A stretch of DNA of 29,281 nucleotides, from positions 1 through 29,281 of IMG/VR virus record IMGVR_UViG_2923302340_000002; one strand, given 5' to 3'. The stretch's first letter is position 1; each line of letters begins with the position of its first letter. The notes below the pieces were generated by a model that worked only from the letters and a program-made list of their open reading frames with translations, was not told where the DNA came from and did not search any database. The position numbers and the translations under genes were made by a program. Shown here in pieces: positions 2,593 to 28,886 of this stretch. This DNA comes from a virus. Its lineage: Duplodnaviria; Heunggongvirae; Uroviricota; Caudoviricetes.

Positions 2593-4164
2593 TTACTGAG
2601 AGCTCAGATCAACTTTCCAGGGCAACAGATCGCGTACCCGGTTTGCCGGCCAGTCCTGGATATGTTCAATGACGTAGCGCAGCCACTTTTCTGGCTCCAC
2701 ATTGTTCAGACGGCATGTGCCGATCAGCGAGTACAACACCGCCGCATGTTCACCACCGCTGTCGGAACCCGCGAACATCCAGTTTTTCCGGCCTACGGCC
2801 ACTCCCCGTAAGGCGTTCTCTGCGATGTTGTTGTCGATTTCCACCCAGCCATTACTGCAGTACACGTTCAGTGCATCCCACTGTTTCAGCAGGTATGCGA
2901 ACGCTTTTGCCGTATCTGAGTGACGCGACAGTGTTTTCATCTGTTGCTGTATCCAGTCATACAGTGACTGCATCAGTGGCGCGGCTCTGGTTTTTCTTGC
3001 CGCCAGACGCTGTTCTGCTGAACAGCCCCGGACCTCTGCCTCGATGGCATACAGTTCACCGATACGCTGCAGGGCTTCCGTGGTGATGTCGGTGGGCGCT
3101 CTTGCATGCACATCGTGGATTTTTCTCCGGGCATGAGCCATACACGCGGCTTCCGTTATTCTGCCGGATTCGTATAACGCCCGGTAACCACCGTAAGCAT
3201 CGGCCTGAAGCACACCGCTGTAACCGGCCAGGTGATTTTGTGGATGGATACCTTTCCGGTCCGGACTGTACGCGAACCAGACCGCCGGGGGCATCTGTGA
3301 ACCGGCGTTACGGTCATCACGGACGTAGACCCACAGCCGGGCTGTCCGGGGTTTACCGCTGCCCGGCTCCTGGACCGGGACGGGGATATCATCAGCATGG
3401 ACTTTACCGGGCATCAGCACATACTGGCGCAGGACGTCATACAGCGGCTCCAGTAGTTCAGCAACGGCACCTGTCCAGCGCCCCAGCGTGGCGCGGCTCA
3501 GCTCCACACCCTGACGGCGGTATATCTCTGACTGGCGGTATAACGGCAGATGGTCTGCATATTTTCCGGTGACGACATGGGCCAGGAGCCCCGCTCCGGC
3601 ATAACTGCGTGCAATGGGTTTTGAAGGTACTGGTGCCTGCACGATATGGTCGCACCGGCAACAGGCCAGTTTCGGACGTTGTGTTTCGATAACCTTAAAG
3701 GCGCTGCTGATAAGCTCCAGTTGCTCTGACACATCACATCCCAGAGAACTGAGTTCACCACCACAGGCCGGACAGCATTCCTCTTCCGGCCGGATAACCC
3801 GGGTTTCACGGGGAAGTGAGGCCGGTAACGGTTTACGGGCTGAAGACTGGCGCAGGGCGGATGGCAGTACCGGGTCATATTGCTCACCCAGCGTTTCCGC
3901 CATTTCTTCCTGAAGTGCGCTGATTCGCTCCTGTGCTTCCTGTATCTGCCGTTCGGTTTTTGCGCGAAGTTTTTCTGAGCTTTTACCGAACTGCATACGC
4001 TGCAGTTTCGCAACCAGCGCCTTCAGCCGGTTGATTTCGGAAGCATAAGCCGCCACCCGCTGTGAGAGCAGGCGGTTGTATTCAGCCATCTGGCGTATGG
4101 TGTCCTGTTGCGTCTGCAACAGTGCCCGCAGGCGGGCGTTCTCATGAGCAAGTGAGGTGTCCAT
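2593..4164 (-). CDS. tnpC: IS66-family transposase (TnpC / orf3)
   Basis: 523-aa ORF with an N-terminal coiled-coil region ([33 protein letters not shown]), a Cys-rich zinc-binding segment (CPACGG...CCRCDH) and a C-terminal catalytic region, as typical of IS66 TnpC. Confidence 0.9.
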
Positions 4165-4183
4165 ATCCTCACTTTACAACGGG

Positions 4184-4531
4184 TTATATACGGATTCCAG
4201 CGCGTTCCGTTCGTTTCGGGTGCTTCCAGTTGATACCTTCAAGAAGCATGGATAACTGAGCCGGAGTAAGGTGCACCTTGCCGTCACGGGTGACTGGCCA
4301 GACGAAGCGGCCCCGCTCCAGGCGTTTGGTGAAGAGGCACAGTCCGTCACTGTCAGCCCACAACACTTTTATCTGGTCACCCCGGCGTCCGCGGAAGATG
4401 AACAGGTGTCCGGAGAACGGGTCATCCTTCAGGACGTTCTGAACTTTTGATGCCAGGCCGTTAAAACCATTTCGCATGTCGGTGATACCGGCAACCAGCC
4501 AGATACGCGAACCGGCAGGGAGAGATATCAT
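4184..4531 (-). CDS. tnpB: IS66-family accessory protein (TnpB / orf2)
   Basis: 115-aa ORF MISLPAGSRIWLVAGITDMRNGFNGLASKVQNVLKDDPFSGHLFIFRGRRGDQIKVLWADSDGLCLF, typical IS66 Orf2. Its start overlaps the upstream ORF stop. Confidence 0.9.
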   Translation of the reverse strand: MISLPAGSRIWLVAGITDMRNGFNGLASKVQNVLKDDPFSGHLFIFRGRRGDQIKVLWADSDGLCLFTKRLERGRFVWPVTRDGKVHLTPAQLSMLLEGINWKHPKRTERAGIRI

Positions 4532-5208
4532 CAGTGGCTGCTCCCTTTCATTTCGCGGATAAGTGTCTGTAATAACGCCGGCGTCAGTTTACCTTTAAGC
4601 CTGAGAGTTCCGGCCGGCAGAACCAGCTCGCAGCACAGACTGTCTGGCAGTGTATTTATCTGTTCAGGTATCTGCACTGGTGCCGGGATTTTATTATCCG
4701 GCTCCGGCGTTAACGTCACGGGAAGTAGCGATGTTTCATGTTCGCCGGGCGGCTGCAGGCCGCCGTTACGCCAGAGATGCCGCCAGTTAAAGAGCAGGTT
4801 ATCGTTGATTCCGTTTTCCCGGGCGATCTGCGCCACACAGGCTCCGGGCTGCAGTGACTGCTCCACTAAGGCGATTTTAAACTCATAAGGGAAGTTGGGC
4901 CGCCGGGGACGTTTTTTTACCACGGGGGCTTCGGATATAACGGTGCTTTCAGGACGTACGACTGGTACCGTGGAAAATTGTCCGTAAAGGCAGGCATCAA
5001 GTTCCTGCTCCGACATGCCTGCGGGCAAAGGCCACGAAAGGCCAGCTCTCCGAAAGCGCACGAACATACTACAAACTGTTGATTTTGGTACACCCAGGCG
5101 ACGCCCGGCCACAACCCGGGGTAAATGTTCTTCAAAGTGAAGACGTAAAGCTTCAGTGATCCAGGTCCGGTGTTTCATACGATAGTGTCCATTAAAAATG
5201 ATGGACAT
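4531..5208 (-). CDS. tnpA: IS66-family helix-turn-helix protein (TnpA / orf1); the true start may be internal to the 225-aa ORF
   Basis: The ORF contains the segment RPNFPYEFKIALVEQSLQPGACVAQIARENGINDNLLFNWR typical of IS66 Orf1. It is longer than usual for this protein, so the start codon is uncertain. Confidence 0.7.
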   Translation of the reverse strand: MSIIFNGHYRMKHRTWITEALRLHFEEHLPRVVAGRRLGVPKSTVCSMFVRFRRAGLSWPLPAGMSEQELDACLYGQFSTVPVVRPESTVISEAPVVKKRPRRPNFPYEFKIALVEQSLQPGACVAQIARENGINDNLLFNWRHLWRNGGLQPPGEHETSLLPVTLTPEPDNKIPAPVQIPEQINTLPDSLCCELVLPAGTLRLKGKLTPALLQTLIREMKGSSH

Positions 5209-5244: not shown

Positions 5245-5718
5245 TTAAATGAGCCGGTTACGTTTCAGGAAATCAACATGTCGGTTTTCCAGTTCCGGAA
5301 AACGCCGCTGTACCGAGAGAGGGATCCCGTCAAGAATACTGGCAATTTCACCTGCGATCCGTGACAGCACGAAAGTACAGAATGCGGTTTCCACCACCTC
5401 TGCGGAGTCTCTGGCATTCTTCAGCTCCTGTGCGTCGGCCTGCGCACGCGTAAGTCGATGGCGTTCGTACTCAATAGTCCCAGGCTGGAGATCTGCCTCA
5501 CTGGCAGCCCTGTAACCCTCAACCTCTTTACGGAGTTTTTCATTTTCGATATCAGCTTCCCTCTGCGCATACCACTGAATTGCCATGGCGGTATCAAATA
5601 CAGATTCAACGCCCTTACCACCTCCGGAGACACAAGGGAGTCCCTGAGATTGCCAGCGTTCAATCGTTCGCGGATCCACGTTGAAAATTTCGGCAAGTTT
5701 CTTTTTATTAACCTTCAT
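5245..5718 (-). pseudogene. nu1: Terminase small subunit nu1, truncated by the IS66 insertion after about codon 153, with the last four codons and the stop supplied by IS sequence
   Basis: [39 protein letters not shown]...[15 protein letters not shown] follows lambda Nu1 and then diverges into NRLI-stop exactly at the IS junction (5261/5262). Confidence 0.85.
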
Positions 5719-7326: not shown

Positions 7327-7863
7327 TTAATTAGTGAGTCCGGGGATTACGGTTTGCCCGTGCTGTTCAAGGCGTTCAATTCTCGCCAGTAGCTGAGGCT
7401 TCTTAATTTTTCCCCAGCGATTGAGCAGGCGGCCAGACATACTGGCGACATCCTTCTCTTTCATATACTCCAGCATTATGGCGTTGCGTTCTGCTTCATA
7501 ACTTTCGCTGTACTTACGGAGTTCTGCAGACATCCAGTTAAAGGCATTTATATAGGCCTCTTTAACAGCGTCGGCTTTTGCGCCATTAAATCCCATGACC
7601 AGCATAACGAAGCCACTAAAGTCCATGCGGTAGTAAATCTGTTTCTTGTCAAAAATCCCTAAGTCATTGATTTTTTCGGCAACGCAAAAATGCGCTCTCC
7701 GGAAATCTTCAGAGCAATGACAATTTTTCAGCGCCCTCAATACGTCCGCATGACGCTTACCAAATGCCTTTGCGATCTGGAAGGTGTCAGTTACCGGTTG
7801 ACCTTCTGCTGCGGTAACTAACTGGCGAAAGTCAAAGTCATGATTCACAATTAATTCATTCAT
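7327..7863 (-). CDS. Rha-family phage regulatory protein (start taken at internal MNELIV; the ORF track extends to 7932)
   Basis: Contains GQPVTDTFQIAKAFGKRHADVLRALKN, the hallmark segment of Rha-type phage regulators. An AGGTAA Shine-Dalgarno precedes the ATG at 7863. Confidence 0.6.
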   Translation of the reverse strand: MNELIVNHDFDFRQLVTAAEGQPVTDTFQIAKAFGKRHADVLRALKNCHCSEDFRRAHFCVAEKINDLGIFDKKQIYYRMDFSGFVMLVMGFNGAKADAVKEAYINAFNWMSAELRKYSESYEAERNAIMLEYMKEKDVASMSGRLLNRWGKIKKPQLLARIERLEQHGQTVIPGLTN

Positions 7864-8013: not shown

Positions 8014-8039
8014 ACAAAAACGCCCCGCATCTGCGAGGC
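8014..8039 (-). terminator. Candidate intrinsic terminator downstream of Rz
   Basis: Minus strand GCCTCGCA-GA-TGCGGGGC hairpin (one mismatch) followed by GTTTTTGT, about 45 bp after the Rz stop. Confidence 0.5.
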
Positions 8040-8081
8040 ATTTTCCTGAAAGTCACTTGTTAAATTTCAGTGAAATTAAAA

Positions 8082-8519
8082 TTATTTTAAGCACTGCGTC
8101 CTAATGTAATCCTGCAAGTAGTTAACCTGCGCGGTTATCCTGTCGATTCCACTTCGGAGACGGTAATAATTGAGTTCAGCATCTGCTGTAAGTCCTGGGC
8201 TTTCTCCATCGCCCATGCTGCTGGCTCCGGTCGTTGACTTTGCACAGGTGGCGGCGACTTGCAGGCGCTTACGACCAGCAGAAACATCAGCACGGAGACT
8301 TTCGATAGTCGCGTTAGCATCAGCAAGCTCCTTTGTGTATCTGGCATCGAGTTCTGCTACATCACGTTGACGCTTCTGCATGTCAGCAATTGTGGATGTG
8401 GCTTTATCACGTTGCTCTTTGTAGGCTATGGCGTTATCACGGTAATGATTAACAGCCCATGACAGGCAAACGATGATGCAGATAACCAGAGCGGAAATAA
8501 TCGCGGTGACTCTGCTCAT
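8082..8519 (-). CDS. Rz: Spanin inner-membrane subunit Rz
   Basis: 145-aa ORF starting [31 protein letters not shown], like lambda Rz. Sits immediately after R. Confidence 0.9.
8135..8320 (-). CDS. Rz1: Spanin outer-membrane lipoprotein Rz1, embedded in Rz in the +1 frame
   Basis: Embedded ORF with signal peptide and lipobox ([20 protein letters not shown]) followed by a proline-rich segment ([13 protein letters not shown]). Start codon choice is uncertain. Confidence 0.7.
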
Positions 8520-9455: not shown

Positions 9456-9764
9456 CCCGCTTTCACGAAGATCATGTGTAGAAGGCCGCAGCGTAACTAT
9501 CACTGATGAATTCAGGATAGCCAGTGGCTACGGCTCAGTTTGGGTTGTGCTGTTGCTTGGCGGCGATGACGCCTGTACGCATTTGGTGATCCGGTTCTGC
9601 TTCCGGTATTCGCTTAATTCAGCACAACGGAAAGAGCACTGTATGTTGCTGGGCCAGATGTCGGCTGCACAGGGAGTCATTGCCGACCCACGCCCTAAAC
9701 ACATTCGTAAATGCGCTTAGGGTTGTCTCCCCTGGTATCCAGTTATTCCCCGGCTGGGGATACT

Positions 9765-9812
9765 CCGCGCGACGCTAATGCGTTTCGTCCCTCATGGACT
9801 CGTCAGGCGCGC
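9765..9812 (-). ncRNA. Type I hammerhead ribozyme motif in the late-transcript leader
   Basis: Minus-strand RNA GCGCGC-CUGACGA-GUCC-AUGAG-GGAC-GAA-ACGC-AUUA-GCGU-C/GCGCGG. This contains both conserved core blocks (CUGANGA and GAA), helix II (GUCC/GGAC, closed with G10.1-C11.1), helix III (ACGC/GCGU with A15.1-U16.1), a GUC cleavage triplet, and helix I formed by the flanking GCGCG/CGCGC. Confidence 0.6.
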
Positions 9813-10087
9813 AATGCTCTTACCTGTTGTGTGCCCATTATTAATCACACCGGGCCAGTGCGCCGAATTTGTTTACAAGGAGTCGGAAGACCTTGCTGAC
9901 TTACAGGCTATTACGCCGCCATCAGAACAACATCATCGTTTGCATTTATCTTTGTGGTCAGTTTCTAAAAAACCGCAAAGTCGCCAACTCTGACGAAAAC
10001 TATCGTTGTGCTGCCACAACGATAAGAGCACTCGGTGCATTTAAGCCAAGCCCCATAAGGGAGAATGCTCTTACCTGTTACACAGAT

Positions 10088-10146
10088 ATAAAAAATCCCG
10101 AAACCGTTATGCAGGCTCTAACTATTACCTGCGAACTGTTTCGGGA
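10088..10146 (-). terminator. tR' (terminator of the short 6S late leader RNA)
   Basis: Minus-strand hairpin with stem arms AAUCCCGAAAC / GUUUCGGGAUU followed by UUUUUUAUAUCUG, about 194 nt downstream of the predicted pR' start, consistent with the lambda 6S RNA length. Confidence 0.6.
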
Positions 10147-10279
10147 TTGCATTTGCAGACCTCTCAGCCTGCGATGGTTGGAGTTCCAGACGATACGTCG
10201 AAGTGACCAACTAGGCGGAATCGGTAGTAAGCGCCGCCTCTTTTTATCTCACTACCACAACGAGCGAATTACCCCATCG

Positions 10280-10316
10280 CTGGGTCAAATTTACCCAACT
10301 TTATTCAAAAAGTCAA
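10280..10316 (-). promoter_or_regulatory. Late promoter pR' (with overlapping qut region)
   Basis: Minus strand TTGACT, a 17-bp spacer, then TAAATT, located about 45-80 bp downstream of the Q stop. Good match to a sigma-70 promoter. Confidence 0.6.
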
Positions 10317-10358
10317 TATCATGCCGTTAATATGTTGCCATCCGTGGCAATCATGCTG

Positions 10359-10982
10359 CTAACGTGTGACCGCATTCAAGATATTGTCTGCGATTGACTC
10401 TTCCTTGTGGCATTGCACCACCAGAGCGTCATACAGCGGCTTAACAGTGCGTGACCAGGTGGGTTGAGTAAGGTTTGGGATTAGCATCGTTACAGCGCGA
10501 TATGCGGCGCTTGCTGGCATCCTTGAATAGCCGACACCTTTGCATCTTCCGCACTCTTTCTCAACAACTCTCCCCCACTGCTCTGTTTTTGCTATATCAA
10601 CCGCGCGGCCTGTACCGTGGCAATCTCTGCATCTTGCCCCCGGCGTCGCGGCACTACGGCAATAATCCGCATAAGCGAATGTTGCGAGCACTTGCAGTAC
10701 CTTTGCCTTAGTATTTCCTTCAAGCTTTGCCACACCACGGTATTTCCCCGATACCTTGTGTGCAAATTGCATCAGATAGTTGATAGCCTTTTGTTTGTCG
10801 TTCTGGCTGAGTTCATGCTTACCGCAGAATGCAGCCATTCCGAATCCGGCTTGTGATTGCGCCATCCCCATAGCAGCCATCACATCAGTACCGGAAAGAG
10901 AGTCAGAAGCCGTGGCCCGTGGTGAGTCGCTCATCATCGGGCTTTTTGGCGAATGAAATTTAGCTACGCTTTCGAGTCTCAT
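10359..10982 (-). CDS. Q: Late antiterminator Q
   Basis: 207-aa ORF MRLESVAKFHSPKSPMMSDSPRATASDSLSGTDVMAAMGMAQSQAGFGMAAFCGKHELSQNDKQKAINYL, same length and sequence pattern as lambda Q, with a Cys-rich zinc-binding region. Confidence 0.95.
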   Translation of the reverse strand: MRLESVAKFHSPKSPMMSDSPRATASDSLSGTDVMAAMGMAQSQAGFGMAAFCGKHELSQNDKQKAINYLMQFAHKVSGKYRGVAKLEGNTKAKVLQVLATFAYADYCRSAATPGARCRDCHGTGRAVDIAKTEQWGRVVEKECGRCKGVGYSRMPASAAYRAVTMLIPNLTQPTWSRTVKPLYDALVVQCHKEESIADNILNAVTR

Positions 10983-11167
10983 CGTCTTCCCCTCTTGCCC
11001 TGTTTGACCATCAGGACGCCGTTAACTATTACGTGACGCTCGCCTTTGCTGTCTCGGTTGTACTTGAGCGCTGTTCCTCTTGCGCAGGAAAGCATCCTCG
11101 CCACTTCGGTCTGATTGCCTCGTGTCTGGATAAGAAGCTCTGGTATCGTTTGAATTGTGGCGTTCAT
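10979..11167 (-). CDS. ninH: NinH-like protein (62 aa)
   Basis: Contains IPELLIQTRGNQTEVARMLSCARGTALKY and VIVNGVLMV, resembling lambda NinH. Sits immediately upstream of Q. Confidence 0.7.
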   Translation of the reverse strand: MNATIQTIPELLIQTRGNQTEVARMLSCARGTALKYNRDSKGERHVIVNGVLMVKQGKRGRR

Positions 11168-11526
11168 ACGTTCTCCAGTTCGGTGATTTTTATTCCAAGC
11201 CGTCCGCCTGGTACTTTCACACCACGAATTACGCGAATGTCATCGAATTGCTCGTCGTCTTCCGCAAATCCGGCGTGGATAAGGGAGTCGAGTAAACCTT
11301 TCAGGATGTTGTCGAGGTCGCGGCGGCGGGAGTCTGGAACGTCTGCGATGACTTTGATACGGAGTCGTGATTTGGTGAAAATGTCTAACTTGAGTTGGCG
11401 GATGATTTGCTGAACGTCTTTTCGGTATTTCTGGCCTTTATCGCTGATGTAGTATTGGCTTCCCCGTCTTCGCCAGTAGGTGTTCAGCGACGGCGGATAT
11501 GGAAGCACAAACTGATATTCGTTCAT
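11164..11526 (-). CDS. rusA: RusA-type Holliday junction resolvase
   Basis: 120-aa ORF MNEYQFVLPYPPSLNTYWRRRGSQYYISDKGQKYRKDVQ...DSRRRDLDNILKGLLDSL, the RusA pattern including the catalytic DxD region. Confidence 0.9.
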   Translation of the reverse strand: MNEYQFVLPYPPSLNTYWRRRGSQYYISDKGQKYRKDVQQIIRQLKLDIFTKSRLRIKVIADVPDSRRRDLDNILKGLLDSLIHAGFAEDDEQFDDIRVIRGVKVPGGRLGIKITELENV

Positions 11527-11813
11527 GGTTTAATCTTCCCCTCCTTCAGCAGTATCGCCTGCGTCCTGATCACGCCTTCGAGGTGGTAAAGTCTGGCGTC
11601 TTTGTTGTCGAGAATCATTGTGCGTCGGTCGATTTCATCGTGACACGCGCTACAAGCCCATGCGCCGATCAGGTCGTCAGGCTTCATTCCAGTTCCGCAA
11701 ATTCCAGCCATCCGGTAATGTGCCAGAACTGTAGTTTCAGGATTACCATTGCATACGCCGTAAATACGTACCTGGCATTCTCTGCCGCGCGCTTCTTTGC
11801 GTAGGTTAACCAT
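11523..11813 (-). CDS. Nin-region protein with a Cys-rich segment (YbcO/DUF1364-like)
   Basis: 96-aa ORF MVNLRKEARGRECQVRIYGVCNGNPETTVLAHYR...CSACHDEIDRR, common in lambdoid nin regions next to rusA. Confidence 0.6.
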   Translation of the reverse strand: MVNLRKEARGRECQVRIYGVCNGNPETTVLAHYRMAGICGTGMKPDDLIGAWACSACHDEIDRRTMILDNKDARLYHLEGVIRTQAILLKEGKIKP

Positions 11814-12541
11814 TAAGCAGCCTCTCCGGTTACTTTCAGCATTCCGTTATCGAGCAGCTTTCTGGTCAGCCACTGTTGACCACGCCCGGTGATTTTTGTG
11901 GTGAACGATATCTGTATTCCGTGATTTGTGTTGACCGCTGTTTCTTTCACTGCGAAATAGCCGCGATCCATATATTCCTGCATTGGCACATTGCGCCGGG
12001 AACCTGAAGCAATAAGGATTTTGTGATCGCGCATCCACGCAAACAGTTTGTTCGGACCAATTCCAACAACCTTTGCAAAGTTTCCAATCAAAATTCCGCT
12101 GGCCTCGCCAACGCGATCGGCAAACTCAACTTTAGGTGCGGCAATTGCGAGCTGGTTTTCCAGTTGCATTTTCTGCTCAGCAAGATCAGCAGCAAGGCGC
12201 AACGCTTCCGGTAGCGTTTTGGGGATATTAACCGCAGCTTCTTCAAGCTCTCGCCAGCGGTCAACAAGACGAGCGGTGAACTCTGGCGACAACTGGGCAA
12301 CAACAACAATACTATCTCGCTTACCTTGTTCGCCTTCGAAGACGTAATGCTCGTACTGAACATTGAACCCTAAGTTATTGATTCTTTCGGAAACCTCAAT
12401 TTGAGGAAGCCGGATAACACCATTTTTAGCCAGCGTTTCGATGGTACGTTTCACATTGTCATGACGCTTACCTGTAAGCTCAGCGATTTCAATGCTAGTC
12501 ATTTTGATGACATTGCTATTTATCAGCTCGTTCATTGTCAT
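11813..12541 (-). CDS. Phage antirepressor (Rha-like N-terminal domain plus KilA-C/ANT C-terminal domain)
   Basis: N-terminus MTSIEIAELTGKRHDNVKRTIETL is Rha-like. The C-terminal half (NFAKVVGIGPNKLFAWMRDHKIL...) resembles antirepressor KilA-C domains. Confidence 0.7.
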   Translation of the reverse strand: MTMNELINSNVIKMTSIEIAELTGKRHDNVKRTIETLAKNGVIRLPQIEVSERINNLGFNVQYEHYVFEGEQGKRDSIVVVAQLSPEFTARLVDRWRELEEAAVNIPKTLPEALRLAADLAEQKMQLENQLAIAAPKVEFADRVGEASGILIGNFAKVVGIGPNKLFAWMRDHKILIASGSRRNVPMQEYMDRGYFAVKETAVNTNHGIQISFTTKITGRGQQWLTRKLLDNGMLKVTGEAA

Positions 12542-12568
12542 GTCCTCTCATATTGAAAATTCACCAAT

Positions 12569-12590
12569 AAAAAACCCAGCCGAAGCTGGG
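12569..12590 (-). terminator. Intrinsic terminator (bidirectional hairpin) downstream of the KilA-N gene
   Basis: CCCAGC-CGAA-GCTGGG hairpin flanked by an A-run (plus strand 12569-12574) and TTTGTT, giving a U-tract on both strands. Confidence 0.65.
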
Positions 12591-12609
12591 TTTGTTAAGT
12601 TGTCAATTG

Positions 12610-13293
12610 TCAGTAGCGATGCAGTGAAGGAGGTAATTCTTTGTTCTTAAGCCTTATCCATGCGGAAAGATTTGTTGGTCCGTCTGGCTCATTGATATCA
12701 ACATCTCGTGTGTGGTTGATTAAAACGTCTCTCGCCATTCCAATAACATACGAGAACTCATGACCGTAGTCGTAGCATCTGCCGGAATAGTTCGATTGAA
12801 TTTGTTTTAATGCCGGATACAGTTCGCGGAATAATGCCTGTGAGCGGTTGGCATAATCCCATAACCATACAAGGCTGTTTGCTTCTTTTGCGGAAAGCTC
12901 GTTGGTGCTCTTCTCTTGTTTGCCAGTATTTTTCTTGCACTGCCTGAAATAGCAGTCTTCCAGTTTTTCGAACACATCCCACGCCTGATCGGTTTCGAGC
13001 ATTTTGGCGTGACGGGCTGCGCCGCGTTCTGTCCAGAGGATGAGAGAGCGAACGTTGCGGGCAATTTTCACAGACTCGCTTAAAGATAGTCTGTGCTTCA
13101 TACCTCTAAGCTCATCGCCCACTAATTTATAAAAATGCTTACCTTCAATAAAACGTTCAGCGTTTCTGGCGTGATTTTGCTGAATGCGAATCGCTTCTGT
13201 GCCGTAAAGCTGCGCCAAAAGTTCAGTGGTAATAACAGGTATCTGGTTATGGGTGATCGGGGAGAGAGTTTCAACAGAGATTTGAGTTGTCAT
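12610..13293 (-). CDS. KilA-N / ORF6N-domain protein (Roi-like DNA-binding or antirepressor-type protein)
   Basis: N-terminal segment [46 protein letters not shown] matches the KilA-N/ORF6N pattern. The gene is bracketed by terminators, forming its own transcription unit. Confidence 0.55.
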
Positions 13294-13453
13294 AATGACG
13301 CCCTCTGGTGGTTTCTAAATAACCCACCACCGACGATGCCAATCATCTGGTGGTGAACTGTGCAGGGTTGGCATAACCGGGAAACCGACCGGCGCGGATC
13401 TCTCCGCCCCCACACAGCCCACCATAATTCAGATGTGCGCGTGCATACGACAA

Positions 13454-13476
13454 TAAAAAACACGCTCGCGGCGTGT
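13454..13476 (-). terminator. Candidate intrinsic terminator in the nin region
   Basis: Minus-strand hairpin ACACGC-CGCGAG-CGTGT followed by UUUUUUAUUG. Confidence 0.5.
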
Positions 13477-13572
13477 ATCTGTCGCGGTTTCTATCCGGGA
13501 TGCCAATCCCGACGCCAGATTTTGCTGGCGTGTGAGGAATATAGCCCCGGATAAATCATCGCGTCAATCCCC

Positions 13573-13749
13573 TTATTTCCTCGCACGATGTCTTATCCAC
13601 CGGATATCCCACAGGTGAGCCGTGTAATTGAAGGTTTTTACGTCAGATTCTTTTGGGATTGGCTTGCGTTTATTTCTGGAGCGTTTCGTTGGAAGGTATT
13701 TGCAGTTTTCGCAGATGATGTCGGTGATACTTCGTCGCTGTCGTCTCAT
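13573..13749 (-). CDS. ninE: NinE (58 aa; not in the supplied ORF track because it is under 60 aa)
   Basis: Manual translation of the minus strand gives [58 protein letters not shown], matching lambda NinE. Its ATG overlaps the ninB stop (ATGA). Confidence 0.8.
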
Positions 13750-14156
13750 TCGTACCTCCTGTCGGTAAATCTGACACCATGACCAATAGCCCAGGCTGTT
13801 GTGTACTCGATAAGACTTGCCATACGCTTCACACTCATCTGCGCGCTGCTTTCGCGAATGTTGACGTATTCGCCTTCAAGCCCGGGCAAAACATCAGCTT
13901 CCTGTTTTGTTGCCACTGCATGACCGCTGATCAACAAAACCTTCCATTGTTCTGGTTTTAACCATTTGCCGCACCATTGAACCTGACGAGCGATATCCGC
14001 CAGCATCGCGTGAAATTTTGCGTTCTGGTCAAGGTTGCGCTTGTAGTCAGTAATGCGGATGGTGACTGGCTTGTCTTTATCGAGTGGTGTTGCGAGGATG
14101 GCATTTATTGCAGCTTGCTGTTGTTGCTTAGTTCGGAGGAAGATTGTTTGCTTCAT
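13746..14156 (-). CDS. ninB: NinB (recombination protein, Orf-family)
   Basis: 136-aa ORF with [31 protein letters not shown], resembling lambda NinB (LDQNRKLWACLGDVSRQVEWHGRWL). Confidence 0.85.
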
Positions 14157-17980: not shown

Positions 17981-18688
17981 ATGGTTCAGAATGAAAAAGT
18001 GCGCAAAGAATTCGCCCAGCGGCTAGCGCAAGCCTGTAAAGAAGCTGGTCTTGATGAACATGGTAGGGGAATGGCCATAGCCCGTGCCCTTTCTCTTTCG
18101 TCCAAAGGCGTTAGCAAATGGTTTAATGCTGAGTCTTTACCGCGTCAGGAAAAAATGAATGCGCTTGCGAAATTTCTAAACGTTGATGTTGTTTGGCTTC
18201 AGCACGGCACTTCGTTAAATGGAGCGAATGATGAAGATACTCTTTCATTTGTTGGCAAATTAAAAAAAGGGTTAGTGCGCGTGGTTGGTGAGGCAATTCT
18301 TGGTGTTGATGGTGCCATCGAGATGACCGAAGAGCGCGATGGGTGGCTCAAGATTTATAGCGATGATCCAGATGCCTTTGGTCTTCGTGTGAAAGGAGAC
18401 AGCATGTGGCCTAGAATAAAATCAGGAGAATATGTACTCATTGAGCCTAACACCAAAGTATTCCCGGGTGATGAGGTGTTTGTCAGAACCGTTGAAGGAC
18501 ACAACATGATTAAGGTTCTTGGCTATGACAGAGATGGAGAATACCAATTTACAAGCATCAACCAAGACCACAGGCCAATAACGTTGCCTTATCATCAAGT
18601 AGCAAAGGTGGAGTATGTGGCTGGTATTCTGAAGCAATCTCGCCATCTGGATGACATCGAGGCAAGGGAGTGGCTGAAAAGTTCGTGA
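17981..18688 (+). CDS. cI: CI repressor (HTH domain plus LexA-like S24 autopeptidase domain), immunity type not lambda
   Basis: 235-aa ORF with an N-terminal HTH region and a C-terminal LexA-like S24 peptidase-like segment (VKGDSMWPRIKSGEYVLIEPN...). Divergent from cro. Confidence 0.85.
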   Translation: MVQNEKVRKEFAQRLAQACKEAGLDEHGRGMAIARALSLSSKGVSKWFNAESLPRQEKMNALAKFLNVDVVWLQHGTSLNGANDEDTLSFVGKLKKGLVRVVGEAILGVDGAIEMTEERDGWLKIYSDDPDAFGLRVKGDSMWPRIKSGEYVLIEPNTKVFPGDEVFVRTVEGHNMIKVLGYDRDGEYQFTSINQDHRPITLPYHQVAKVEYVAGILKQSRHLDDIEAREWLKSS

Positions 18689-18793: not shown

Positions 18794-19531
18794 TTGCAAA
18801 ATAACTATCTACAGGTTATAGCCTATACTAGGCGCATGAATGATGGTATGACCAAGCCATTCCTTTGTACTTGCCAAGATGGGCTGGCTTACATAGTTAA
18901 AGGAAGGCCAAAACTTCGCCAAAAAGAGCTTGTAGCAGAATTTATTGCCGCCCATCTAGCAAAACAGATAGGTCTGCCATGTCCTGATTTTTGCATTGTT
19001 GATGTTGATTGTGGGTTAATCGAGTTCATGCCTGACTTGCGTGGTGAGCTTTTGCCTGGACCTGCATTTGCTACCCGCTTTATTGAAAATGCATCAATCA
19101 TAAATATTCAACAAGCAAGGAGTGCTGTAACCATTCAGGAACAAAAGAAAATATTCTTCTTTGACCGCTGGATAAACAACGCAGACAGATCATTGACTGA
19201 CATTGGTGGTAATGTAAACATAATTTACGATGCATTTAACAATAGGTATTACCTGATTGACCATAATCTGGCGTTCGCGCAGGATACAAGATCTCATGAG
19301 TATGATGTCCATGTGTATTCGCCGAATGGAAGACCGTGGGTTTTCGACATGCTCGACGAACCCGAACTGATGGATCTTGCAAATGATGCTATTAGTTCAG
19401 TAGAGGAGAAATTTAATCAGCTTCCGGATGAGTGGTTTTCAACCGATGAAGAACGAAGGCTAATGCTGAATGAGATAATGAACTGCCTGAACAGAGTGCA
19501 CGACAGAGAGTTTTGGAGTAACATCAAATGA
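18794..19531 (+). CDS. Kinase-like protein (tentative HipA-like / atypical kinase fold) at the rexA-equivalent position; the true start may be the internal ATG at 18836
   Basis: Same strand as cI and 105 bp downstream of it. Contains WINNADRSLTDIGGNVNIIYD ... YYLIDHNLAF, resembling a kinase catalytic loop (D...N) followed about 20 residues later by a DFG-like IDHN. Motif-level resemblance only. Confidence 0.4.
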   Translation: MQNNYLQVIAYTRRMNDGMTKPFLCTCQDGLAYIVKGRPKLRQKELVAEFIAAHLAKQIGLPCPDFCIVDVDCGLIEFMPDLRGELLPGPAFATRFIENASIINIQQARSAVTIQEQKKIFFFDRWINNADRSLTDIGGNVNIIYDAFNNRYYLIDHNLAFAQDTRSHEYDVHVYSPNGRPWVFDMLDEPELMDLANDAISSVEEKFNQLPDEWFSTDEERRLMLNEIMNCLNRVHDREFWSNIK

Positions 19532-20346
19532 CCACACCATGCCTGTATAGCATTATTAGATATGCTCCATATGCAGAAACCGAAGAGTTTGCTAATGTCG
19601 GTGTGGTTCTTTGTGCCCCGAAATTAGGTCAGTTTTGCTTTAAACTGACCCAAAGCAACAATGCCAGAGTAAAAAACTTTTTTCAGGATGAAATCATTTT
19701 CCCTCACGCGAGGGATGCAATTGCAAGAGAGCTAAAATTTGCTCAAGAGCAAAGTTATAAATTCAATTCTCCTGAAAAATTAGCAAATTTTTTCAACTAC
19801 TTAATTGGCAGGAAAGAGTCAATCATTCATTTTAGCTCTGCAAGAGTTGCAATGTCTGCTTGTCCACAAGACATGATGCACATACTTTTTAATAAGTTTG
19901 TACATCATTCAGAAATAACAAAAGAATCTCGTGAGACCATCCTGACGAGAGAGCTTAAGCATCGTTTCTCTCATTATAACGAACTCAGGAACGCCTTTAA
20001 AAAGGAAATGCTTGGTGGTGAACTAACGCGGTTTTCTGTACCATTTGTTGCCCGTCACGATGGAGAGATTTTATGTGCTATCAAACCCCTAACATTCACT
20101 CAGGACAAGCCTGAGAAAATGTTGGAGCACTGCGACTCTTGGACGGCCAAAATTCTGCGCGCCGCCAGTGAAAAAATTTTATCTGTCTCAAATGTGTTAT
20201 TTACGATAGATGCACCTCGCCAGCCAAGTGAGCTTGAGGTAAAAGCGATGAGTGAGATTCGTAAGACATTCGATGAGAAAGGTATAAATCACGTAGAGCA
20301 TCAGGATGAAGCATCAATAGTAAAGTTTGCTAAGCAAGCAATTTAA
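19528..20346 (+). CDS. Hypothetical 272-aa protein, translationally coupled partner of the kinase-like gene (rexB-equivalent position)
   Basis: Its start overlaps the upstream stop (ATGA at 19528-19531). It is followed directly by a strong intrinsic terminator. No recognised motif. Confidence 0.4.
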   Translation: MTTPCLYSIIRYAPYAETEEFANVGVVLCAPKLGQFCFKLTQSNNARVKNFFQDEIIFPHARDAIARELKFAQEQSYKFNSPEKLANFFNYLIGRKESIIHFSSARVAMSACPQDMMHILFNKFVHHSEITKESRETILTRELKHRFSHYNELRNAFKKEMLGGELTRFSVPFVARHDGEILCAIKPLTFTQDKPEKMLEHCDSWTAKILRAASEKILSVSNVLFTIDAPRQPSELEVKAMSEIRKTFDEKGINHVEHQDEASIVKFAKQAI

Positions 20347-20692: not shown

Positions 20693-20790
20693 GATCACCC
20701 AACCACATGAGCTGTGGGATGCAATGCCGAAGCAACCGTCTCAGGAGGAGCTTCGAGATTGCATCACCAAAGTTTATTCGGGAGGAATCT

Positions 20791-21063
20791 ATGTCCAGAA
20801 AAACAGAATTTAAAGGCACCGCAGCTTCTCGCCGTAGAGCTCGTCGCGCAAACCTGCAAAGTCAGGAGGCGATTAGCTCCGACAAGCTACACAGGCCAAC
20901 CACCTCACGAGTGGTCTTGCAATGCAAGCGCAAACCAGCAATGAGAGCAGAAGTTATAACTCTGACAACGTTGATCAGAAAATATGAAGGTTCAACTTGT
21001 CTTCCAAACGTAGCTCTTTACGCGGCAGGCTACCGGAAATCAAAACAACTGACGGCGAGGTAA
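20791..21063 (+). CDS. N: N-type antiterminator (arginine-rich motif), start taken at the internal ATG with a GGAGG Shine-Dalgarno
   Basis: MSRKTEFKGTAASRRRARRANLQ: arginine-rich RNA-binding motif near the N-terminus, the first gene of the leftward operon after nutL. The ORF track extends the frame upstream to 20707. Confidence 0.7.
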   Translation: MSRKTEFKGTAASRRRARRANLQSQEAISSDKLHRPTTSRVVLQCKRKPAMRAEVITLTTLIRKYEGSTCLPNVALYAAGYRKSKQLTAR

Positions 21064-23143: not shown

Positions 23144-23215
23144 ACGCGGCGTTACCGCATACCAATAACGCTTCACTCGAGGCGTTTTTCGTTATGTATA
23201 AATAAGGAGCACACC

Positions 23216-23380
23216 ATGCAATATGCCATTGCAGGGTGGCCTGTTGCTGGCTGCCCTTCCGAATCTTTACTTGAACGAATCATCCGTAAATTACGTGACG
23301 GATGGAAACGCCTTATCGACATACTTAATCAGCCAGGAGTCCCAAAAAATGGATCAAACACTTATGGCTATCCAGACTAA
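23216..23380 (+). CDS. cIII: CIII (54 aa; absent from the ORF track because it is under 60 aa)
   Basis: Manual translation from the ATG at 23216 gives MQYAIAGWPVAGCPSESLLERIIRKLRDGWKRLIDILNQPGVPKNGSNTYGYPD, matching lambda CIII apart from one residue. Preceded by an AAGGAG Shine-Dalgarno. Confidence 0.85.
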   Translation: MQYAIAGWPVAGCPSESLLERIIRKLRDGWKRLIDILNQPGVPKNGSNTYGYPD

Positions 23381-27123: not shown

Positions 27124-27153
27124 AACCCGTATATGTACGGGTTATTTTTCTTT
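27124..27153 (+). terminator. Intrinsic terminator at the end of the early-left operon
   Basis: AACCCGTA-TATG-TACGGGTT hairpin followed by ATTTTTCTTT. Confidence 0.65.
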
Positions 27154-27690
27154 ATCACTATCTTTTCTTGATTTGAACAATCCACTAACAACGAAACCAA
27201 CCAAACCAACAATACTAATTGTACTTGTACCTAGTAATGCAACGATCGCTTCAACTGGAGGCTTTCCTTCATGTGCAATAAGAAACGATGTAAACATTGC
27301 GACAACGAATAAGCACCAACACGACATAAACCAAACCGTGAATGAGGCCATTTTTGTCCGAAGCTCATTGTCTATTTCTTTACCAGTTGCGTCAGCTATC
27401 TTATCCCGTACTTGTGATTTGAGCATATCAAGCTGAGCTTGAAGACTGTCCATTCTGTTCTGCTGCATAAACTCATGCAATGCACCAGTATTAGAACCAA
27501 ACTCTTCTGCCTCCAGAATAGCTTTATTTTCTGAAGAAGAATCATCGTCGCTCTCATGATTAGACGGCTCAAATGCAGATTTAAAAATCTGTTCTTGACT
27601 GTCAGTAGAGTTTAAGGATGCTTCAGAGCGACCATTTTCAACACCTGCGGCCGCTCCGATAAGTTTATAGATATCTGAATTGTGAGACAT
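27142..27690 (-). CDS. Membrane protein with an acidic N-terminal domain and two C-terminal transmembrane helices (candidate toxin partner of the Panacea-domain protein)
   Basis: 182 aa with C-terminal hydrophobic helices (FTVWFMSCWCLFVVAMFTSFLIA and AIVALLGTSTISIVGLVGFVVSGLF). Lies 22 bp downstream of the Panacea-domain gene on the same strand. Confidence 0.45.
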   Translation of the reverse strand: MSHNSDIYKLIGAAAGVENGRSEASLNSTDSQEQIFKSAFEPSNHESDDDSSSENKAILEAEEFGSNTGALHEFMQQNRMDSLQAQLDMLKSQVRDKIADATGKEIDNELRTKMASFTVWFMSCWCLFVVAMFTSFLIAHEGKPPVEAIVALLGTSTISIVGLVGFVVSGLFKSRKDSDKEK

Positions 27691-27712: not shown

Positions 27713-28201
27713 TCAGAGGCCCTGACATTGCTGTCGGTTATTCAATAAATCATGATAATAAGCCTTGATCGCATCATTTGAGATGATTGACGAGCCAATA
27801 CCATTATAAGCTTGTGACCAAGGCGTACCAGGCATATGAGTTAGAGTTGATAACTCAATTCCATTTTTCGAGCCGTAAAATTTATAAACAGCCCCTATAA
27901 TGCTCTCTGCTTGTGGATCCATAGTAACAATGCCACCAAAAGGAGCTACTGCTACATTCGTAACAGGTTTATTCCCATAATCTTTGAAAGCATCGTACAT
28001 TCCAGGAATAACTGGACCGTACTTCCACGCGGAGACACATTCATTGAGCAAAGGCTTACCTGTTAATGCTAAATAGTAACCATGTGCAATATAAGTAAGC
28101 TTCTGCAGTTGCATGTGGGTCAGAGGATTATGATGTTGGTTTCCCAACGTTATGAATTTATTGGCTATTTGTACCGGGCTGTACATAACCACCCTCCTCA
28201 T
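27713..28201 (-). CDS. Panacea (DUF4065) domain protein, antitoxin-type
   Basis: 162 aa with YSPVQIANKFI ... THMQLQKLTYIAHGYYLALTGKPLLNECVSAWKYGPVIPGMYDAFKDYG, the pattern I associate with the Panacea domain. Confidence 0.6.
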   Translation of the reverse strand: MRRVVMYSPVQIANKFITLGNQHHNPLTHMQLQKLTYIAHGYYLALTGKPLLNECVSAWKYGPVIPGMYDAFKDYGNKPVTNVAVAPFGGIVTMDPQAESIIGAVYKFYGSKNGIELSTLTHMPGTPWSQAYNGIGSSIISNDAIKAYYHDLLNNRQQCQGL

Positions 28202-28886
28202 TACACTGAATGTGCAAACAGTATCATCACTGTTATCTCAACCTAGCACGAACAAAAAAATTTTGGAAGATTGCAAGAGCAATTCACTGTGTTTATAACC
28301 AGCAAAGAACTGTACATATACACAGGTTACAAATTGGTGGCGAATTATACCTGCAGAAGTTGCGATGTCAACAAAGCGACCATCACAGTGTTTTGCATCT
28401 CACACTGCTATGACAAAAAATCTTTTGATAGGTTCCCAATAGGCTCCCACAAAACACATAACCAATTGTTTTTCAAAAACGATACATCCTATCGAGCATT
28501 GGTGCAACGCTAAACCGACCACTCCAGTGAACGTCAGTTTTTTCAGGCATTGCGCTGGTTTGGTTGATTTTTTGCATTTCAGAATTACCGTGCATTTTCA
28601 AATGTAGAGATTATTTTATCGATATATCATGGGGTTATGTTATTCAGCATCACTGTTCAGGAGGCTCAATAGCGGGGTACTATACCATAACAACAGGAAG
28701 CGCCTGTCTCATTGCAAAAGAAAATTGAGATCCTCTCAAGGCATGAAGCTCTCACGAAGTGATGGAAATAATCTTATTAGCCGTTAGCTTTGTTAAGGCC
28801 AATGATAAACAATCCAGGTTCGACGATAAATAAAAATCACACATTAAACTCCGGTGATATCTCTCCCTGCTAATAGCACTGATAGA

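Follow-up and report, generated by a model that had tools for sequence, protein, structure and literature searches.

An IsrK- and C4-bearing RNA leader likely gates the antirepressor-like gene ant in the nin region of a lambda-like prophage

Background

In the Salmonella prophage Gifsy-1, the isrK promoter yields a 77-nucleotide (nt) small RNA (sRNA), IsrK, and, by read-through, an isrK-orf45-anrP mRNA of ~910 nt that is translationally silent until IsrK, acting in trans, binds and opens it, upon which orf45 is translated and AnrP follows via coupling (Hershko-Shalev et al. 2016, PMC4825925). The same study reported a stable processed RNA, STnc1160, downstream of IsrK, noted its likeness to P4 CI/seqA, and found that expression of AnrP induces Gifsy-1 and raises transcription of the antQ operon (PMC4825925). 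Here, we describe a related leader in the virus record IMGVR_UViG_2923302340_000002 of IMG/VR (the whole stretch of 29,281 nt, hereafter the window), a lambda-like prophage with its early-right and late genes on the minus strand. In its nin region lies ant (12610-13293), a gene for an antirepressor-like protein of 227 amino acids (aa), which is likely the cargo of a self-contained, RNA-gated cassette made up of a promoter, IsrK with its terminator, a C4 RNA, a leader open reading frame (ORF), ant itself, and a second terminator. This cassette is probably independent of the prophage repressor.

Related control is known from phages P1 and P7, in whose immI region translation of icd is needed for transcription of ant, the c4 RNA is processed by RNase P, and a promoter is controlled by C1. 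Proteins of a domain-swapping "Bro network" have been associated with C4/isrK immunity RNAs (PMC10111431), the layout ninE-ant-roi-ninG-ninH-Q is standard in Shiga toxin (Stx) phages (PMC3430580), and isrK and C4 have already been annotated in the EDL933 genome through Rfam (PMC5331693). In the Stx phage phi24B, ant is expressed weakly in lysogens, and its deletion leaves a late-promoter reporter at ~27-56% of the wild-type level after norfloxacin, most of which is restored by complementation (PMC3064807). An earlier note on the window, made from the sequence alone, had described ant as a terminator-bounded, independent unit accompanied by two further antirepressor-type genes, and had suggested cross-talk with the repressors of co-resident prophages.

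Results and discussion

Three RNA families between ninE and ant

The gap between ninE and ant is 280 nt long and holds matches to three Rfam elements on the coding strand, which are contiguous, co-oriented, and upstream of ant (these, like all leader features, terminators, and antirepressor-like genes below, are on the minus strand). An IsrK-type sRNA at 13455-13531 (77 nt; RF01394) is matched over its full length, 1-77, with 80 bits against a cut-off of 50; a c4-a1b1 motif that overlaps it, at 13492-13544 (RF03163), scores 52.4 bits against 46.7; and a C4-type antisense RNA at 13346-13429 (RF01695) scores 68.2 bits against 45. IsrK folds into three hairpins (-26.8 kcal/mol) and is nearly identical to the IsrK of Gifsy-1. 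The C4 element, which corresponds to STnc1160 of Gifsy-1, adopts the family consensus of a long closing stem around two hairpins (-44.5 kcal/mol, z -4.5), and its 3' end, CACCACCA, is a tRNA-like feature.

The complements of two short recognition elements of the C4 RNA occur twice in the leader. Element a' (CGGUUUC, 13381-13387) occupies the loop of C4 hairpin 2, and b' (AUGCCAA, 13368-13374) the single strand that follows this hairpin. Their exact complements a1 (GAAACCG, 13485-13491) and b1 (UUGGCAU, 13500-13506) lie inside IsrK, and a second pair lies in the 5' untranslated region of ant, where a target region at 13301-13342 comprises b2 (UUGGCAU, 13336-13342; an exact complement of b'), a2 (GAAACC, 13310-13315; an exact complement of part of a'), and the ant Shine-Dalgarno sequence GAGGG (13301-13305), with a2 ending 4 nt 5' of the latter. 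When the whole leader is folded to minimum energy, the a1/b1 segment of IsrK pairs with a'/b' of C4, like the published inactive structure A, and helix b-I (the middle of IsrK with the 3' part of the leader, at the G28/C162 and G31/C159 positions) forms.

Just upstream of the IsrK 5' end, beginning 6 nt past the ninE stop codon, lies a promoter-like site equivalent to PisrK (13538-13567; TTGACG-18-TATATT, 10 of 12 consensus positions matched), which was the best such site in a 9.5-kb scan. Aligned with the isrK promoter of Gifsy-1, the -35 TTGAC and the -10 region GGGGCTATATTCC are identical, and most of 10 aligned leaders have a similar promoter-like element. The IsrK terminator (stem 13460-13476 plus U-run), found by a terminator scan, sits inside the 80-bit Rfam match, and both it and the promoter-like site align with their Gifsy-1 counterparts. 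At the other end of the cassette, between ant and the next gene, roi, a second terminator (12565-12593, stem 12572-12593) consists of AAACCCAGC-UUCG-GCUGGGUUU with 9 pairs, then a U-run; its folding energy is -16.4 kcal/mol (z -3.7), and phi24B and VT2-Sakai carry it unchanged, with another hairpin taking its position in APSE-2. Across the region, the number of terminator-like sites shows no clear enrichment (16 found versus 10.0 ± 2.8 expected), but these two are supported nonetheless by their conservation and, for the upstream one, by the 80-bit Rfam match.

The scan, the folds, conservation, and Rfam thus bear out both of the intrinsic terminators that the earlier note had placed around ant, to within ~3 nt. 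Its picture of an independent unit holds as to autonomy and the strong 3' terminator and fails as to the upstream boundary: that terminator is the 3' end of IsrK with a promoter-like site 5' of it, and hence probably an attenuator inside the transcription unit rather than the edge of one.

The leader ORF

The counterpart of orf45 is an ORF of 36 codons (13315-13425) whose AUG, at 13425, is at +107 from the IsrK 5' end as in Gifsy-1. Its UAG stop (13315-13317) overlaps a2 and ends the frame 21 nt ahead of the ant AUG, unlike Gifsy-1, where the ORF has 45 codons and an AUGA overlap with the downstream gene. The difference comes from a 2-nt indel that shifts the frame, and the AUGA overlap, lost for the ORF that starts at +107, is present in the window only for an 18-codon ORF from 13346. 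VT2-Sakai has the same 2-nt state, and the leader ORFs of VT2-Sakai and phi24B end 30 and 38 nt, respectively, before ant. Across leaders, frame and length are highly variable, so the leader peptide itself is unlikely to matter, in agreement with a published remark that conservation extends to the nucleotide sequence and not to the peptide. Because ribosomes translating this ORF would traverse b2 and come to a halt on a2, coupling by unmasking is still plausible, and that the ORF is translated would be expected by analogy to the Gifsy-1 data (PMC4825925).

Separately, a conserved AUG in the 5' stem of C4 is in frame with a long downstream ORF in about half of 101 leaders, and some "Ant" coding sequences in databases span the isrK and C4 RNAs (e.g., positions 1723-2745 of contig L009, the Stx1a phage Stx1_14744). 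Such coding sequences are either annotation artefacts or N-terminally extended isoforms.

Comparison with described systems

The window leader is 89% identical at the nucleotide level to that of Gifsy-1 (the Gifsy-1 sequence aligned is the region between antQ and STM2616) and shares with it the promoter-like site, the 77-nt IsrK, the terminator, the AUG at +107, and the C4-like STnc1160, followed in both by a gene that begins with the same ORF6N domain. The Gifsy-1 locus lies after Q with antQ immediately upstream, whereas the window locus precedes Q, being placed within the nin region and flanked by ninE and roi; in addition, the C terminus of the window Ant is a P22_AR_C domain, and the a/b recognition sequences differ. 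No Rfam match to isrJ, which lies downstream of the antirepressor gene in Gifsy-1, was found downstream of ant even at E <= 1. We regard the ant cassette as a well-conserved, standard instance of a known prophage control, set apart from Gifsy-1 by its position, its leader-ORF frame, the Ant C terminus, and the recognition code.

Like the immI regions of P1 and P7, the window has a C4-family RNA with two recognition elements, a1/b1 sites upstream, a2/b2 sites at the ribosome-binding region of the downstream frame, and a specificity that goes through co-varying short sequences (cf. the heteroimmunity of P1 and P7). Unlike them, it has an intrinsic terminator between a1/b1 and C4 that yields a separate IsrK sRNA; it lacks an icd homologue, its a2 abuts rather than covers the Shine-Dalgarno sequence, its cargo is not P1 Ant, and no C1-controlled promoter was identified in the window. 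The ant leader can be described as P1/P7 c4 logic plus an intrinsic terminator that frees the a1/b1 segment as an sRNA of its own. The same RNA families recur in P4, where CI corresponds to C4 and seqA to isrK/a1b1, with target sites flanking the RNA on both sides (PMC10111431, PMC4825925); the P4 RNA terminates transcription of replication genes, in contrast to the window, where the cargo is of antirepressor type and the closest homologue is translationally controlled.

Closest in gene order are the Stx phages (phi24B, VT2-Sakai, and 933W-like phages), which share the arrangement ninE-leader-ant-terminator-roi-nin genes-Q. The window leader is 96% identical to that of VT2-Sakai, Ant is 76% identical to Ant of phi24B and 79% to Ant of VT2-Sakai, and Roi is 81% identical to Roi of phi24B. 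The window departs from the Stx phages in that YbcO and RusA genes replace ninG, the Dam gene upstream of ninE is absent, the Q type is different, and a single, compensated base triplet separates the b codes.

Covariation of the recognition sequences

A pattern scan of viral contigs, together with the window and nine comparison loci (Gifsy-1, phi24B, VT2-Sakai, phi346, phiV10, IdasGreatGrand, a Yersinia phage, APSE-2, and an Stx1 phage), gave 111 distinct leaders, of which 87 were parsable; isrK is followed by C4 in 9/9 comparison loci. An exact 7-nt complement of a leader's own b' is present both in IsrK and downstream in 80 of the 87 leaders, which fall into 14 b' classes, compared with 0/1131 for non-cognate combinations. 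For the a' loop, of which 33 distinct versions occur, a complement of at least 7 nt is found downstream in 75/87 leaders (4.9% for non-cognate combinations) and upstream in 53/87 (2.3%), and in most leaders other than that of the window the 3' end of a2 is usually 8-12 nt before the AUG, overlapping the Shine-Dalgarno sequence. Structure is conserved as well: among 22 diverse leaders, 93.3% of cells are paired, compared with 80.9% after shuffling, and 22 pairs show changes on both sides, values that no shuffle or slid register equals. Compensatory changes across these 22 leaders are seen in the C4 stems and in 5/7 pairs of the long-range b1:b' helix.

The comparison with Gifsy-1 gives a three-way example of such change. 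The window differs at matched positions in all three b sites (b1 G31->A, b' C->U, and b2 G->A), leaving position 31/159 as A-U in the window and G-C in Gifsy-1, and all three a sites differ likewise; G31/C159 is the pair that was probed by compensatory mutation in Gifsy-1 (PMC4825925). The resulting b code, AUGCCAA, is rare and one compensated transition away from the dominant code of Sakai and Gifsy-1, ACGCCAA. Three further contigs encode an Ant of exactly this sequence, each time with the identical rare b code, which rules out a sequencing artefact.

With at least 14 b' classes, 33 a' loops, and 45 combinations in this sample, we put forward, tentatively and at less than even odds, that a'/b' form a combinatorial address code that sets RNA-level immunity or cross-talk groups of lambdoid prophages, atop CI immunity. 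If so, IsrK of one prophage could activate the antirepressor of a co-resident prophage or incoming phage with a compatible code, and a C4 RNA could likewise silence the antirepressor of such a phage. The cross-talk suggested by the earlier note is plausible, trans-acting antirepressors being a known concept (PMC3121763), and it may go through RNA codes as much as through proteins. G-U wobble predicts an asymmetric cross-reaction of the window code with the dominant ACGCCAA class, and a duplex-energy matrix, crude in that constant flanking bases dominate the energies, predicts a near-cognate interaction of the window RNAs with those of VT2-Sakai.

Leaders of this type also occur in tandem. On contig L040 (IMGVR_UViG_2671181028_000005), positions 9700-11270 hold three cassettes of an isrK-C4 leader and a ~115-aa Rha-N-like gene with a 656-nt period; their proteins are nearly identical, and at least two of the three carry different a'/b' codes. 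Another viral contig, L080, has two such leader plus Rha-N-like cassettes.

The antirepressor-like proteins Ant, Roi, and Rha

Three genes with swapped combinations of antirepressor-type domains are present in the window, as the earlier note had proposed, and the PHROGs labels on all three are anti-repressor or Rha-like regulator. Pfam profiles identify ORF6N (E 1.2e-20) and P22_AR_C (E 9e-30) in Ant; Phage_pRha (E 4e-9) and ANT/KilAC (E 1.4e-32) in the 242-aa product of roi (11813-12541); and Phage_pRha (E 4.5e-22) and ORF11CD3 (E 6.6e-28) in the product of rha (7327-7863). The Rha and KilA-C assignments were therefore right, and of the double label KilA-N/ORF6N given to ant, the ORF6N half stands: the protein has no match to the Pfam KilA-N profile itself, though ORF6N is KilA-N-like.

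Ant combines an AnrP-like N terminus with a P22 Ant-like C terminus. Its residues 1-127 are 66% identical to AnrP of Gifsy-1 (E 1e-57), with the first 27 residues identical, and the C-terminal domains of the two proteins are unrelated; its C-terminal 104 aa, the P22_AR_C domain, are 91% identical to residues 197-300 of P22 Ant. Compared with P22, the window protein has an ORF6N rather than a P22_AR_N/AntA N terminus, and its gene is accompanied by IsrK/C4 RNAs where P22 has Arc, Mnt, and sar. Ant is a putative functional antirepressor by homology to its counterparts AnrP, phi24B Ant, and P22 Ant, and among the three genes only ant has close relatives with antirepressor-type evidence (AnrP and phi24B Ant). 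The PDB holds no sequence relatives of Ant or Roi.

Judged by its sequence, the gene at 11813-12541 is a Roi orthologue. It has two in-frame ATGs, at 12541 and 12535, of which the second is better spaced from the GAGAGGA Shine-Dalgarno sequence, and the 240-aa form from 12535 is the one used by gene callers on other contigs. A promoter of its own was sought and rejected: the minus strand between 12541 and 13293 has no promoter-like site, and a perfect TTGACA at ~12606 lacks a usable -10 by eye. Since it has no such site upstream, roi should be silent in the lysogen. It lies outside the cassette, past its terminator, and is probably expressed only by antiterminated read-through.

The gene at 7327-7863 is likewise, on sequence and position, the canonical P22-type rha after Rz, separate from the nin-region module; the Rz-rha segment is 96.8% identical at the nucleotide level to phage BTP1, in which the gene is annotated rha. 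Between Rz and rha, a hairpin with a U-run (8016-8045; -23.1 kcal/mol, z -5.6), overlooked by the consensus terminator scan, means that a terminator stands ahead of rha as well, inside the late operon. In their N-terminal Phage_pRha domain and in the canonical location of their genes (roi in the nin region, rha after Rz), the two proteins match HK022 Roi and P22 and phi80 Rha, respectively, which are known for inhibiting lytic growth in mutants lacking integration host factor. Roi has been described as implicated in lytic growth (PMC3430580), and the literature consulted holds no demonstration of antirepressor activity for Roi or Rha. We treat roi and rha as standard genes for DNA-binding Bro-network regulators and as no more than candidate antirepressors. 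Control by LexA, as in the Gifsy antirepressors GfoA, GfhA, and GftA, was also considered and rejected for lack of a LexA box near ant, roi, or rha: CTGT-N8-ACAG with at most one mismatch is absent near all three genes, the nearest sites being at 8440 and 16368.

Proposed mechanism and alternatives

By analogy to Gifsy-1 and to P1/P7 c4, the cassette may work as follows. In a lysogen, the promoter would fire independently of CI, and most transcripts would end at the IsrK terminator; the rare read-through mRNAs would be translationally silent, with C4 tied up either in cis by the IsrK segment or at a2/b2 beside the Shine-Dalgarno sequence. As free IsrK accumulates, it would titrate a'/b', the leader ORF would be translated, and ribosomes crossing b2 and halting on a2 would allow translation of ant, whose product would inactivate the CI-type repressor and push the prophage towards induction. 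In lytic growth, N-modified polymerase from pR would read through both terminators, making ant and roi delayed-early genes and derepression faster. In the lambda paradigm, the nin terminators are read through in lytic growth, and since N is encoded in the window, these terminators would isolate genes in the lysogen only.

That ant is the cargo of an RNA-gated cassette rests on the RNA elements with their folds and positions, the near-identity of the leader to that of Gifsy-1, the duplicated a/b complements, and the three-way covariation. Several observations weigh against it. How the ribosome would be blocked is less evident than for most homologues, as a2 is just 6 nt long and 4 nt 5' of the Shine-Dalgarno sequence; the coupling of Gifsy-1 may not transfer unchanged to a frame-shifted, non-overlapping leader ORF; and the C-terminal domain of Ant is not that of AnrP. 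The repressor is of the cleavable S24 type, so that an antirepressor is not required for SOS induction, and the prophage may be defective in packaging given an IS66-family element beside its terminase genes.

The closest competitor gives the same RNAs other roles: as in P1/P7 or P4, a processed, trans-acting C4 RNA would mainly repress ant, in resident and incoming phages of the same code, by a translation block (P1) or premature termination (P4 CI, seqA/seqC), and IsrK would be merely an upstream target or decoy rather than an activator. The C4 and a1b1 Rfam matches, the match of a'/b' to a2/b2 beside the ribosome-binding site, and the tRNA-like end CACCACCA all fit this, as does the stable STnc1160 RNA of Salmonella, which has been compared with P4 CI/seqA (PMC4825925, PMC10111431). 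In Gifsy-1, however, IsrK in trans raises anrP translation ~140-fold, and constitutive STnc1160 gave no relief of IsrK toxicity (PMC4825925). We see this as a real possibility, though not the probable one; it is compatible with an RNA-gated cassette and differs from it solely in which RNA is limiting. A different question is what the switch controls. The proteins might not be antirepressors at all but DNA-binding regulators, growth inhibitors, or anti-defence Bro-network factors, given that Rha and ORF6N are N-terminal domains of DNA-binding type, that the IHF-mutant phenotype described above for HK022 Roi and P22/phi80 Rha concerns growth inhibition, and that one Bro-network member, in a Vibrio PLE satellite, acts as a repressor (PMC10111431); the RNA switch would then gate an activity other than repressor inactivation. 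This seems unlikely, as expression of AnrP switches on both the antQ operon and Gifsy-1 (PMC4825925), the Ant C terminus is nearly that of the archetypal P22 antirepressor, and loss of ant in phi24B lowers late-promoter activity on induction (PMC3064807).

Less credible still is that ant is a plain, terminator-insulated moron free of RNA control, one of three antirepressors engaged in protein-level cross-talk with co-resident repressors. Both terminators do exist, the three proteins all carry domains labelled anti-repressor in databases, and cross-talk by trans-acting antirepressors is documented in Salmonella (Lemire et al. 2011, PMC3121763); yet the upstream terminator belongs to a strong IsrK match with a promoter-like site before it, the leader shows strong structural and three-way covariation, roi has no promoter-like site, and neither Roi nor Rha has a demonstrated antirepressor activity in that literature, which together make this very unlikely. 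We give least credence to a decaying leader whose RNA elements no longer regulate, with ant expressed only as a delayed-early gene from pR in a perhaps defective prophage. The frame-shifted leader ORF, the short a2, and the IS66 element beside the terminase genes would suit such a relic, but VT2-Sakai shares the 2-nt state and both it and phi24B have non-overlapping leader ORFs, and a private b code that changed compensatorily at three sites and recurs with an identical Ant on three other contigs speaks for selection rather than decay.

Distribution and genomic setting

The 2.3-kb region has matches in 2547/5426 complete E. coli genomes and the leader alone in 2581/5426 (48%), with up to 6 copies per genome. 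In other phages, the isrK-C4 leader precedes genes of Rha-N type (~35 of 101 distinct leaders), ORF6N type (15), or other genes, e.g., Bro-N; in APSE-2 it is followed by a Bro-N gene, a hairpin, and a Rha-family gene. In some E. coli prophages, e.g., in strain STEC346 (NZ_CP091044.1, 3118385-3121977), the same nin slot holds two Arc-family genes and a gene annotated "antirepressor N-terminal domain". This content looks like P22 immI-type control, and antirepressor cassettes under differing control logics can apparently be accommodated in the slot.

In the window, the nin region comprises NinB (13746-14156), NinE (13573-13749), which lies directly upstream of the ant leader, ant, roi, YbcO, RusA, NinH, and, at its end and ~1.6 kb downstream of the cassette, Q (10359-10982); beyond Q follow, in order, S, R, Rz, rha, Nu1, and the large terminase. 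Pfam also identifies N (20707-21063), cII, O, and P, as well as a CI-type repressor on the plus strand (17981-18688; HTH_3 and Peptidase_S24), the presumed target of Ant by analogy. The IS66-family element (2593-5208) separates nu1 (5245-5718) from the large terminase gene (566-2491); its components are an HTH_Tnp_1 ORF (4531-5208), a DDE_Tnp_IS66 transposase (2593-4164), and, between these two, a small ORF (4184-4531).

Other features of the prophage lie apart from these genes. Two plus-strand genes directly 3' of cI, where lambda has rexAB, form a candidate lysogen-expressed defence or toxin module: one (18794-19531) encodes a HipA_2-type kinase, and the other (19528-20346) is an ORF of 272 aa. 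On the minus strand, a SocA/Panacea-domain antitoxin gene (27713-28201) adjoins an unassigned 182-aa ORF (27142-27690). Two LexA boxes lie nearby, a perfect one at 28310-28325, CTGTACATATACACAG, and, just upstream of the antitoxin gene, one with a single mismatch at 28206-28221; the two genes may be an SOS-controlled toxin-antitoxin pair. A lambda cIII thermoregulator RNA element on the plus strand (23203-23261; RF01804, 88.5 bits) confirms that the left operon has a cIII region of lambda type.

Conclusions

At this locus, the regulatory information resides in the 240 nt of RNA 5' of ant and not in how many antirepressor-like genes there are. Most Stx phages carry this switch, as do about half of the complete E. 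coli genomes, and its experimental study has apparently been confined to Gifsy-1 of Salmonella. In Stx phages, induction of the toxin-expressing late operon is already known to be weaker when ant is deleted. If RNA codes set which prophages wake each other, knowing them would help to predict co-induction and Shiga-toxin release in strains that carry multiple prophages.

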